Shown piece by piece: positions 58,071 through 63,357 of a DNA stretch of 64,000 nt. The DNA is from Spirochaetota bacterium. GTDB lineage: Bacteria; Spirochaetota; UBA6919; CBDBPB01. The stretch is taken from positions 96,001 to 160,000 of the forward strand of contig CBDBPB010000007.1 in assembly GCA_965208615.1 (NCBI GenBank), given 5' to 3'. Made by a program: the position numbers and the translations under genes. Below the pieces are notes generated by a model. The model was given only the letters and a program-made list of their open reading frames with translations, had not been told where the DNA came from and did no database searches. Within the stretch, counting starts at the first letter, position 1; each line of letters starts with the position of its first letter.

Positions 58071-58949
58071 TTATTTTTTTAGTAGTTTTGTTTTATAGCG
58101 GTGAAATTTTATTAATGCTTTTTTTGAGTTTTGTTTCCAAAGTTTTAAATATTCGATCCATGTATAATGGGATTCGATTTCTGACAAAGTGGATCTGTTA
58201 TTTTCTTGAGCCTCCTTATTGAATATTGTATATAGCGATTTAACTCTATAGTATTCCTTAGGGTTTAACTCTTTAGATAGCATATCGTTAGGGATGATTT
58301 TTGATAATTTCCTGCCGTGATATTCGAATATAATTTTATAATAATCTGTTTCAGAAAGCATAGTAATTTTATCATCGAGAGCATCTATTAACATGTATCG
58401 GTAATCTGGATAAGTGATAAGATCATCCCATATTTTTCTATACTGAGTAGCAAGCTTTTTTGAGTGGGGTAGCATTTTATTTATTGTAGACTTATCAACA
58501 CTAATTTCTAGATTCTTTTCTAGTTTATGAGTAATACCAGCACCTAAGGGAGTAGTAAGACGGCCCCTAGTCCGCTCTAAATCTATGTTGCTTATTTTTG
58601 GCGTCTTAGATAACTCAGTAAGCTCATCTACACTTTCTATTATAGTACTAAAAGAGCTATAATATGATTTAAATGCTTTAGAGTTAAGAGATATTTTTTC
58701 CCCTTTAACTTTGCTTAAGCTATGGAGATAGTTATTAAACATATCACTCATAGCTACACCATAGTGAATATTAATAAGGTTGTTTTTAAGTTCATAAGCC
58801 AACAACTTTTCATTCATATAGCTATCAAAAATATTTTTATTTAACATAGCTATTATATCTTTATTTCCTTTGTAAGTCAGGTTGTATAAGATAGTTATAA
58901 CGCTTAATGCTAAAACAATTAGGAAGATAATGGATCGTTTTTTTTTCAT
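58071..58949 (-). CDS. Membrane-anchored short paralog B of the tape-measure-slot domain
   Basis: N-terminal TM; HYGVAMSDMFNNYL, YRKIW, EYYRVKSLY, FHRYK motifs shared with the 552- and 566-aa proteins. Confidence 0.7.
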   Translation of the reverse strand: MKKKRSIIFLIVLALSVITILYNLTYKGNKDIIAMLNKNIFDSYMNEKLLAYELKNNLINIHYGVAMSDMFNNYLHSLSKVKGEKISLNSKAFKSYYSSFSTIIESVDELTELSKTPKISNIDLERTRGRLTTPLGAGITHKLEKNLEISVDKSTINKMLPHSKKLATQYRKIWDDLITYPDYRYMLIDALDDKITMLSETDYYKIIFEYHGRKLSKIIPNDMLSKELNPKEYYRVKSLYTIFNKEAQENNRSTLSEIESHYTWIEYLKLWKQNSKKALIKFHRYKTKLLKK

Positions 58950-59026
58950 TATGAACCCTCCAAAAAGTTATGCTGTAAAGTTAGCCCGTAAGGATAGGGG
59001 ATATCAACATTCACCTGCGATAAAAG

Positions 59027-59052
59027 TTAATATATAAAAATGTAGAGTCAAG
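59027..59052 (-). promoter_or_regulatory. Conserved sigma70-like promoter upstream of short paralog B
   Basis: 26 bp identical to 61645-61670; minus strand reads TTGACT-16nt-TAACTT. Confidence 0.6.
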
Positions 59053-59090
59053 GCTTATTCTAGTTTTCAGGAAGGGTTAAGAAGTTTTTT

Positions 59091-61494: not shown

Positions 61495-61644
61495 GTATGC
61501 TCCCTATACCAATAAGTCGCTTTTAAAGTGGCAAGGCGACGAGTCGCTTTAAAGGGTGACTGATCACTAAGCTACGTAGCCAGCTACTCTAATGTGACCT
61601 GGCTGTGTGTACACCTTGTGGGTATCATCAAGCCGTCTATAAAA

Positions 61645-61670
61645 TTAATATATAAAAATGTAGAGTCAAG
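61645..61670 (-). promoter_or_regulatory. Conserved sigma70-like promoter upstream of short paralog A
   Basis: 26 bp identical to 59027-59052; TTGACT-16nt-TAATTT; two TAGCATA repeats adjacent at 61676-61692. Confidence 0.6.
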
Positions 61671-61698
61671 CCTGGTTATGCTATATATGCTACTTTTC

Positions 61699-63357
61699 TT
61701 ACGCTGTATGAGCTAATACTTCTTTAACATTATGTCCCTGAGGAACACTAGAATTAGTTATTTCGTTATAGGCCTGATACAGCAGTTGAGAAATCCCATT
61801 AAGCTTATCTTTATTATCTGGATGACATCTAACTAGCTGGTTAATATTATCCTCAGTCAATATATTATCATTATTTTCAGTATTAGCATGAGAGTCATTA
61901 CTAAAAAGATTTTCCAAGTTATCATTATAGCTAGCTTTGACTACTCTTTCAGTGTTGGCTACTCCTACAGCATTTCTGAGTACCGGATTAAGAGATTTTC
62001 TCCTAAGAGATCTTTTCCTAATAAGATTTGCCAACTTGTTATAGTTATATGCCAAGTTCTTATAATTAGCGGTATTAGCTACTCCAGCTATCTTGTCATT
62101 CTTAGAACCAATTCCTTTAGTGTTGTTAGTATATTCCACATTTGTCTTTGTAAATAGATTACTAATTCTGTTATGATTATCATTTACAAAAAGTCTACTC
62201 TCATCGTTATCAAATGCGGCAGCAAGTATGTCAGAATGACTAACTCCTGTTTCTTTTATTAGGCTATTTATATTTAGGTTATATAAAGAAGCGTACATCT
62301 CTCTAGATTTCACATCACTAGTTAGGTACGGATCTGTAGCATATCTGTATTGTTTTTTTATATGTCTAAGAAAGTTCGCGTATTTACTCTGTAATATTCC
62401 TTTTCTATATCGGTAGAATTCTTCCATTGCAGCTTGACCACTAAACCTATCCCATTCACGCCCTTCTGCTGCTCTTGAGTTAATCTTTAAAATTGTTGGA
62501 TAACTAATATAATGATTAATTGCCTTAGCTTCAGCTTGCTTATCAAGTACCATATATAGTGATCTAGCAGCATAATATTCATTAAGATCAAGGTCAGTAT
62601 CTGGAGTATAAGGTATATTCGTGCCTATCTTAGCATCAAGTAATAGTCCTAATAAACCTAAGTTATTTTTATTATTAGTAATGGAGCTCCACATATTTCT
62701 ATAACCAGTAGCAAAGTTTTTTGACTTACCCTTAACTTTTTTATATATAGCAAAAGGAATAGTAAAAGATTCCTTGTCTTTTAGTACAGTATCAATTGTT
62801 ACTGAATTATTAGAACTATTTCCCAAGTACTCATTAATTATGTCCACAATAGCTCCAGAACTTCCGAATACAGACCCAAGTCCATGTTTACCAATTAGAT
62901 TTTTAGGAATATTACTTACGGCATCTTGTATAGGAGTCCAAGACTTCATATATGAATCAAATGTTTTACTATTAATAACAACTGGCTTATTTTTAGTACC
63001 AATTGATTCTAAGTAATTATCAAACAGCTCACTAATAACCATACCATGATGAGCACCTAATACACTGTAGCTTTTTTTAGTTCGTATATTACGATAGATA
63101 GCTAAACTGCTCAGTAATAACCCAATGATTGTTCCAACCGCGGCTGGTGGAACAGAACTAATACCAGCAATTAATATTGTTAATAAAATATTATTAATCA
63201 GTTTCCTCTGATCTTCATTCTTTTCACTTTTAAAAATACTTTTAACATTTTTATCCTTTTTAATTGCTCTATCTAATAGGTTTTCATGGTGATAGTTTTT
63301 TAGAATACTGGGGGCATTATTCTTAGAAAGATTAGCTATACTACTTGTTTTTCCCAT
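61699..63357 (-). CDS. Long paralog 1; putative tape-measure protein by position
   Basis: Directly follows the chaperone/GT frameshift genes; hydrophobic segment LLTILIAG...IIGLLLSSLAIY. Confidence 0.65.
   Translation of the reverse strand: MGKTSSIANLSKNNAPSILKNYHHENLLDRAIKKDKNVKSIFKSEKNEDQRKLINNILLTILIAGISSVPPAAVGTIIGLLLSSLAIYRNIRTKKSYSVLGAHHGMVISELFDNYLESIGTKNKPVVINSKTFDSYMKSWTPIQDAVSNIPKNLIGKHGLGSVFGSSGAIVDIINEYLGNSSNNSVTIDTVLKDKESFTIPFAIYKKVKGKSKNFATGYRNMWSSITNNKNNLGLLGLLLDAKIGTNIPYTPDTDLDLNEYYAARSLYMVLDKQAEAKAINHYISYPTILKINSRAAEGREWDRFSGQAAMEEFYRYRKGILQSKYANFLRHIKKQYRYATDPYLTSDVKSREMYASLYNLNINSLIKETGVSHSDILAAAFDNDESRLFVNDNHNRISNLFTKTNVEYTNNTKGIGSKNDKIAGVANTANYKNLAYNYNKLANLIRKRSLRRKSLNPVLRNAVGVANTERVVKASYNDNLENLFSNDSHANTENNDNILTEDNINQLVRCHPDNKDKLNGISQLLYQAYNEITNSSVPQGHNVKEVLAHTA

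Follow-up and report, generated by a model that had tools for sequence, protein, structure and literature searches.

In this study we describe four paralogous genes that stand in the place of the tape measure gene in a contractile-tail gene cluster of a Spirochaetota bacterium. The analysed DNA (the window) is a stretch of 64,000 nucleotides (nt), contig C7:96001-160000, from a genome of 2.46 Mb with a guanine-cytosine (GC) content of 31%, and the four genes lie towards one of its ends. Judged from sequence, it might be possible that the two long genes encode non-orthologous substitutes for the tape measure protein (TMP), and that the two short ones are moron-like, membrane-anchored paralogs with a possible role in exclusion or immunity; we put this forward as a tentative reading, somewhat short of an even chance. 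The order and sizes of the genes had been given in a preliminary description made from the letters alone, and all four open reading frames (ORFs) are present as it had them (aa, amino acids):

61699-63357, minus strand: long1, 552 aa, with an N-terminal block, a hydrophobic hairpin, a helical core and a conserved C-terminal region
60856-61494, minus strand: shortA, 212 aa, with an N-terminal anchor (residues 10-38) and the first two thirds of the core
59091-60791, minus strand: long2, 566 aa, a paralog of long1
58071-58949, minus strand: shortB, 292 aa, with an N-terminal anchor (residues 3-27) and the complete core domain

That these genes occupy the tape-measure slot, as had been proposed, is confirmed by a second, complete prophage on the same contig (loci L004 and L011), which has terminase, portal and capsid genes and arranges its tail genes in the same way. 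The gene that this sister prophage carries between those for the chaperone and LysM encodes a protein of 919 aa that matches the TMP family TIGR01760 with an expect value (E) of 4.9e-29. The two tail clusters are collinear in a translated comparison; homology ends at window position 63358, where long1 starts, and returns at 57854, at the LysM gene. Since this gap faces the 919-aa TMP of the sister prophage, the four ORFs appear to replace a tape measure gene. In the whole genome the capsid gene and the canonical TMP gene each occur once and the sheath gene twice, and hence the cluster in the window is left without a head and without another TMP candidate. No head genes (capsid, portal, terminase) were found in the window's cluster, the only capsid gene being that of the sister prophage. 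The features that border the slot are:

63556-63987, minus strand: tail assembly chaperone G, 143 aa, 76% identical at the protein level to the gene that precedes the TMP gene in the sister prophage
63341-63568, minus strand: slippery heptamer GGGAAAG (63562-63568) with the T extension in the -1 frame, about 75 codons
56838-57842, minus strand: LysM/DUF6046 baseplate protein, at which homology to the sister prophage returns

The LysM gene probably starts at the ATG at 57842 (334 aa) rather than at the GTG at 57920 (360 aa), because the resulting MGKYYK... matches the start of the sister protein and is preceded by a ribosome site, while the GTG lies inside a promoter-like module described below.

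The placement of the four genes directly after G/GT also holds: the chaperone gene upstream is intact and carries the GGGAAAG frameshift site, which we take to be the slippery heptamer of lambda G/GT. Chaperone G has no family match of its own in Pfam or PHROGs. Between the two clusters its proportions of non-synonymous and synonymous differences (pN and pS) are 0.126 and 0.757. Heptamer and conserved T frame are found in both clusters; the T extension has a pS of 0.53 and a pN of 0.18, and a translated nucleotide search (tblastx) shows 77.6% identity over 76 aa in the second frame. The T frame of the window's cluster meets a TAG (63343-63341) that lies 12 nt inside long1, and that of the sister prophage ends just before the TMP gene starts. 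Since long1 begins where the G/GT frame ends, as the TMP gene does in the sister prophage, long1 is most likely the client of G/GT, and to our knowledge the handling of a tape measure is the only known job of this chaperone. A complex prediction for chaperone G and long1 scored 0.00 and carries no weight either way. Over 13 pairs of tail or lysis genes compared between the clusters, the ratio of non-synonymous to synonymous rates (dN/dS) was 0.06-0.44 in 11, and in the remaining two, for which dS was saturated, pN was 0.13 and 0.23. With such low dN/dS, and with pN far below pS, the tail genes of the window including the chaperone have been kept by selection over a long divergence. A substitute tape measure is the best single explanation, given the retained G/GT, the abutment of long1, the absence of a second TMP candidate, and long forms that have kept their length and their ends. 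Among the properties that define a TMP, it is gene position on which the assignment of the long forms rests.

As far as alignments can tell, the paralogy of the four proteins is far above chance. In blastp comparisons long1 and long2 share 27.7% identity over 581 columns (E 1.6e-36). shortA, described earlier as a near-copy of long2, is indeed a partial copy of it, with 74.7% identity over 162 aa (E 1e-75) and 90.8% over 434 nt at the nucleotide level. shortB had been thought closer to long1 than to long2; the direction is right (25.7% over 265 aa, E 2e-10, against 23.3% over 287 aa, E 3e-8), but the margin is slight (50 versus 43 bits). The motifs that had been named for a shared core recur in a four-way alignment of the core with 19 invariant columns, including G..S..F..YL, N.K.F..Y..S and Y...W. 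All four genes have ribosome sites of the GAGG or GGAG type 6-11 nt upstream of their starts. Conserved termini are, as claimed, confined to the long forms, which share the N-terminal block SILKNYHH.NLL..AIK (16 of 30 residues identical) and the C-terminal block LTE...N....P. Conservation among the long forms is thus highest at the two termini, as would be expected if both ends docked to conserved partners. In addition, length has been kept: long1, long2 and a broken third copy elsewhere in the genome span 552, 566 and about 552 codons at no more than 28% identity. In long1 residues 53-88, directly before the core, are hydrophobic (best 19-residue Kyte-Doolittle mean 1.94). The membrane anchors that had been noted at the N-termini of the short forms are strong by the same measure (2.68 in shortA, 2.50 in shortB); by hydropathy only, these segments come after basic residues and have no lipobox cysteine. 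We also considered an 'MG...S' N-terminus as a myristoylation-like signal and dropped it, as an MG start is common among the proteins here.

Each short gene is preceded by a promoter-like module of its own. The module consists of two to three TAGCATA repeats, 6 nt, C-TTGnCT, a 16-nt spacer and TA(A/G)(C/T)TT, and it occurs on the gene strand in five gaps of the element:

61642-61692, minus strand: P2, TAGCATA twice, 6 nt, C-TTGACT, N16, TAATTT, between long1 and shortA
59024-59052, minus strand: P5, C-TTGACT, N16, TAACTT, without TAGCATA, between long2 and shortB
57887-57946, minus strand: P3, TAGCATA three times, TTGTCT, N16, TAGCTT, before the LysM gene
54749-54808: module before the spike gene
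about 9412-9462 of locus L003, outside the window: module before the first tail gene

The 26-nt core of P5 is identical to that of P2, and these are its only two occurrences in the genome. The core pattern, which was derived from the same sites that it then counts, has 10 matches in the genome: the five sites of the element, one in a further unit on contig C4, two at housekeeping genes and two without TAGCATA. A P-type ATPase gene and a 184-aa kinase-like gene are the two housekeeping genes concerned; in both cases the copy is about 50 nt upstream and has TAGCATA-like repeats. We infer from these sequences that the module may be the sigma-70-like promoter type of this organism; a sigma-70 scan did not list the module sites. 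A separate promoter-like module before each short gene is what would be expected of an independently expressed immunity or exclusion gene. The gaps around the four genes, from the chaperone gene to the LysM gene, measure 198, 204, 64, 141 and about 228 nt, while the corresponding genes of the sister prophage overlap. The 146-nt leader of shortA folds unremarkably (z = -1.88; 9 of 200 shuffles equally stable), and Rfam gave two sub-threshold rows and no family.

An element-specific late regulon was considered as well and rejected: the exact TAGCATATATAGCATA is confined to the element, yet other copies precede housekeeping genes. The module architecture with TAGCATAAATAGCATA precedes the P-type ATPase gene, and a looser copy precedes another housekeeping gene. 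A late activator was sought among the small proteins specific to the cluster, and no family was found. Beyond the element, copies that bear TAGCATA lie at C2:135932 and C7:93845, with the looser one at the kinase-like gene. The TAGCATA sites may form a small regulon of a DNA-binding factor.

The alternation of long and short genes is not limited to the window: the long-promoter-short order returns on contig C4, in a copy that is decayed and lies outside a tail cluster. This unit (L010 7076-9973, C4:559075-561972) sits between a gene for a cyclic nucleotide monophosphate (cNMP)-binding protein and a 915-aa housekeeping-type gene, and the 18-kb locus around it has no transfer RNA (tRNA) genes. 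It comprises three broken ORFs of 272, 104 and 127 aa that span 1657 nt (about 552 codons). Its 5' leader and anchor resemble shortB (78% over 126 nt), and its 3' end together with the promoter module resembles long2 plus P5 (71% over 429 nt), the 3' end matching the C-terminus of long2 at 41% aa identity (E 2e-19). Downstream, a 1.2-kb stretch without ORFs still holds a shortB-type 3' end (12 of 19 aa, E 4e-5). Given that the order appears again at this site, the long-promoter-short arrangement seems to be an evolutionary unit.

Between shortA and long2 there are signs of sequence exchange. The two genes share an ungapped block of 383 nt with 28 mismatches, which are concentrated at the edges of the block and leave a perfect run of 148 nt; a run of at least this length arose in 1 of 20000 random placements of 28 mismatches. 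The tract and a neighbouring homopolymer are:

shortA 61153-61300 and long2 60327-60474, minus strand: identical tract, putative gene conversion
58055-58066, minus strand: C12 homopolymer, starting 4 nt past the shortB stop codon

Independent contigs of run X1 break at both copies of the 148-nt tract; for this region runs X2 and X3 gave only short, unlike pieces, and no RNA run was listed. The pattern is consistent with an older duplication followed by gene conversion, and with selection on shortA that is either relaxed or diversifying as far as the sequences can tell. The idea that the short genes are donor cassettes thereby gains some support, limited to a single conversion-like tract. A diversity-generating retroelement as the source of the clustered mismatches in shortA was rejected: by eye the changes are not adenine-specific, and no reverse transcriptase was seen among the annotated ORFs. 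The C12 tract is the longest G/C run of the genome, in which there are five runs of at least 9 nt in total, the other four all being 9 nt long; it may act as a switch that is prone to slippage, or it may be a spot sensitive to assembly.

The core domain had been called unknown, and the searches agree. A profile of the four proteins, run against 1,835,955,588 representative proteins, found five at E <= 0.001, namely the four members and a 127-aa protein identical to an ORF of the decayed C4 unit. By this measure the family is an ORFan confined to this one genome assembly. A word-based protein search that started from long1 found long1 alone among 8000 scored candidates, and the family profile matched none of 60 related genomes, none of which belongs to the same family or genus. 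Scans of genome contigs that started from the LysM protein and the sheath yielded no relatives, and a scan of viral contigs yielded one locus with a LysM motif match only. PADLOC had nothing above threshold, its sole row being a weak HEPN_IX match to long2 (E 0.0065). The AlphaFold2 model of long1 is almost wholly helical with a mean predicted local distance difference test (pLDDT) value of 47.8; that of shortB has a mean of 55.0 with a helical bundle at 67-81 in the core. The confident part of both models is the core only, with pLDDT values of about 65-86. Foldseek gave no matches at E <= 0.001 for long1 against the PDB or for shortB against the PDB and BFVD, the top rows being generic helical bundles with TM-scores of at most 0.36. 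The ESM Atlas offered no lead, long1 scoring 0.77 and shortB 0.82 at best.

How might such an arrangement work? If the reading as TMP substitutes is right, the tape measure gene of a headless contractile-tail element would have undergone a lineage-specific replacement. long1 would be a helical tail-core protein of the tape-measure type, ejected on contraction, and its hydrophobic hairpin could insert into the target membrane. long2 would be an old paralog of nearly equal length with conserved ends. The short forms would carry an N-terminal signal anchor in place of the N-terminal block and the hairpin, and by the positive-inside rule their core would lie at the inner membrane of the producer, on its periplasmic face. 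In that position the tethered core might compete with, or poison, the incoming long protein, following the exclusion and immunity logic of the HK97 gp15 moron, to which we return below. A stronger form of this idea is immunity by self-mimicry, in which a new ejected, membrane-active core would be countered by tethered truncated copies, placed as decoys at that periplasmic face and acting as dominant negatives, while conversion keeps the pair matched; we think this improbable. Full-text literature searching found no description of TMP paralogs or decoys used for immunity. The preliminary description had further spoken of polymorphic effectors. In the usual sense of the term, with a conserved N-terminal part for delivery, a C-terminal toxin domain that varies and an unrelated immunity gene behind it, this is not supported: the conserved parts of the long forms are the termini, both of them, no toxin or defence domain is detectable, and each long gene is followed by a paralog of itself. 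Taken as a whole, that earlier interpretation is partly supported.

Several observations weigh against long forms that serve as tape measures and short forms that protect. In Pfam, PHROGs and NCBIfam no TMP or other family was found above threshold for any of the four proteins, with the 919-aa protein of the sister prophage and its TIGR01760 match serving as positive control for the TMP profiles. A direct comparison of the family profile with that protein showed no similarity (hhalign probability 0.58%), and the modelled core is, at low confidence, a compact helical bundle with two short strands and no long coiled coil. The internal hydrophobic segment that had been claimed for the long forms holds for long1 but not for long2, where the aligned stretch is weakly hydrophobic (best 19-residue Kyte-Doolittle mean 0.9). 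Members of the family come from just one assembly, which is metagenome-derived and belongs to an isolated lineage, and full-text literature searching found no precedent for two TMP paralogs in one cluster. The third long-promoter-short unit sits outside any tail cluster, a scan of the four gaps found no terminator-like sites on the gene strand, and the gpJ-like gene of the cluster is split by a frameshift in the assembly. The chief rival explanation holds that the TMP was lost and that an unrelated, host-specific family of membrane proteins was inserted as long-promoter-short pairs into a defective element. The cluster would then make no tails, or borrow the TMP of the sister prophage in trans, and the genes would act in the envelope. 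We consider this somewhat unlikely. It would account for the missing TMP signature and the split gpJ-like gene, and since the hydrophobic segment of long1 aligns with the anchors of the short forms, all four may simply be membrane proteins. Also the C4 unit lies in a housekeeping neighbourhood without phage genes or tRNA, the promoter-bearing units break an operon whose genes overlap in the sister prophage, and with chaperones that are 76% identical the use of the sister's TMP in trans is conceivable. However, G/GT and the other tail genes have stayed under purifying selection over a saturated dS, and the T frame abuts long1 just as that of the sister prophage abuts its TMP gene. Decay, moreover, has hit the C4 unit, away from any tail cluster, with its three broken ORFs and a remnant that has no ORF, whereas the cluster itself innovates rather than decays, with three fibre genes and an extension of its hub.

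A further point against a protective role concerns shortA. Between shortA and long2 dN/dS is 0.93, with 13 synonymous and 53 non-synonymous differences, so that no purifying selection is visible, and shortA evolves faster, with 16 derived changes against 6 in long2 within the duplicated block and, when all 207 aligned columns are counted, 28 against 12. From the sequences, both ratio and rate fit decay as well as an arms race. There may be one working tape measure (long1, possibly also long2) accompanied by debris of duplication and conversion, with short genes that protect against nothing; the last third of the core is missing from shortA, which would agree with this. We regard it as an unlikely explanation, because shortB, at about 25% identity, still has every one of the 19 invariant core columns and an intact frame of 292 codons in a genome of 31% GC, and because shortB-type 3' and 5' ends are still recognisable at C4, which makes the gene type old. 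Both short genes also have good ribosome sites and promoter-like modules. Still less probable, to our minds, is a variation system in which the short genes would be donor cassettes that rewrite the cores of the long genes by conversion, with the C12 tract as a phase switch, so that the ejected protein would vary. The identical 148-nt tract with its low frequency among random placements, the mismatches at the block edges and the position of the homopolymer just behind shortB speak for such a system. On the other hand only a single conversion-like tract is seen, there are just two possible donors, both equipped with a start, a ribosome site and a promoter of their own, no reading frame includes the C tract, and the region is represented by contigs of one run (X1) only. 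Tandem paralogs can, besides, convert without any function for the conversion.

Compared with known systems the arrangement is unusual in several ways. Lambda gpH and Mu gp42 are phage tail tape measure proteins. Like genes for TMPs of the TIGR01760 type, the four genes follow the frameshifted G/GT chaperone and precede the LysM/tube-initiator and hub genes; models of low confidence make the proteins helical almost throughout, a hydrophobic segment is present in long1, and length is kept among divergent copies. In contrast, the long forms have 552-566 aa instead of 919 and one or no hydrophobic segment instead of six, they lack sequence or profile similarity to TMPs, and their modelled core is a compact bundle. 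There are moreover two paralogs here, each followed by a truncated anchored copy, and no translational coupling to the next gene. By its genes alone the element resembles an R-type tailocin, with sheath, tube, G/GT, baseplate and fibres together with holin-like, endolysin and repressor genes and without capsid, portal or terminase. The tailocins known to us have retained a TMP that can be recognised, and they are not known to carry immunity genes; in this element the TMP is replaced, an array of coiled-coil membrane proteins takes the place of the head genes and the hub has an orphan extension.

For the short forms the closest parallel we considered is the moron gp15 of HK97, an inner-membrane superinfection exclusion protein that is encoded in the tail operon and is believed to prevent channel formation by the incoming tail (PMC3594210). 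gp15 is like the short genes in forming an independent unit in the tail operon beside the TMP gene and, as is predicted for the short forms, in having a membrane-inserted product, but it is small, related to YebO and not to the TMP, is encoded ahead of the TMP gene and comes with a terminator of its own. The short genes, by contrast, are paralogs of the neighbouring long gene, and no terminator-like site was found. None of the four proteins has a Pfam, PHROG or NCBIfam match that would point to gp15 or YebO homology, a statement that involves no direct comparison with gp15. Tab of Pseudomonas phage JBD26 is a prophage-encoded moron with a logic of self-protection whose specificity maps to the TMP; it has 83 residues, is encoded between terminase genes and blocks tail assembly inside the cell (PMC10884400). 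The word 'transmembrane' occurs 0 times in the text of this paper (PMC10884400). Tab is an example of a prophage defence that is directed against the TMP. The short forms differ from it in that they are predicted to be anchored or exported, and they are homologous to their presumed target.

TMPs are thought to be indispensable and recognisable in long phage tails and tailocins. If an orphan protein were indeed the client of G/GT, this would be a case of non-orthologous displacement of a tape measure. Likewise, if true, truncated and anchored paralogs with promoters of their own would offer a concrete, testable model of immunity that works by mimicking an ejected tail protein.

The wider element, of 32 kb, looks like a headless, Mu/P2-like contractile-tail cluster of the tailocin type beside a tRNA array. 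The genes upstream, which run past the end of the window, are a sheath gene (398 aa), a tube gene and the 143-aa chaperone gene; further upstream come a holin-like gene, an M15-type endolysin gene and an XRE-type repressor gene, followed by seven tRNA genes. Downstream of the slot the order is LysM/DUF6046, hub (phrog_4930), spike, gpW-like, gpJ-like, gpI-like and three fibre genes. Just past the window end, on the opposite strand and at the place of the sister's head genes, lies an array of seven tandem paralogs of 79-132 aa (L003 9705-12194, plus strand; C7:162704-165193). Each combines coiled-coil repeats of 11 residues (VENKLDSKISD-like), in varying number, with a hydrophobic segment at the C-terminus, and none has a family match.

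The gpJ-like baseplate wedge gene (52341-53670, minus strand), which in the sister prophage is a single ORF of 409 aa, is broken here by a frameshift near 53045-53056 into ORFs of 220 and 234 aa that overlap. An independent contig, from run X1, has one base less than the window over 51765-53832, and removal of one base would rejoin the frames; the frameshift may therefore be an assembly error. The hub is also altered:

54978-56834, minus strand: baseplate hub (phrog_4930), extended at its C-terminus by about 290 aa of orphan sequence

It has 618 aa as against 326 aa in the sister prophage, and the extra part (54978-55850) follows a linker rich in Lys, Asp and Gln. The best PDB match of the extension is a streptavidin hybrid at E 0.021, and no homolog was found among 1891 candidates of 339-1082 aa. 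The extension could be an effector or binding domain borne at the tip.

The three fibre genes (43527-44936, 45551-48136 and 49068-50507, minus strand) are 80-88% identical in their N-terminal parts to the single fibre gene of the sister prophage, and they differ in their distal parts. Proteins rich in 'YGNNKFIAVG' repeats are encoded between fibre genes (50544-51440) and inside 45551-48136. This set suggests alternative or multiple receptor-binding fibres.

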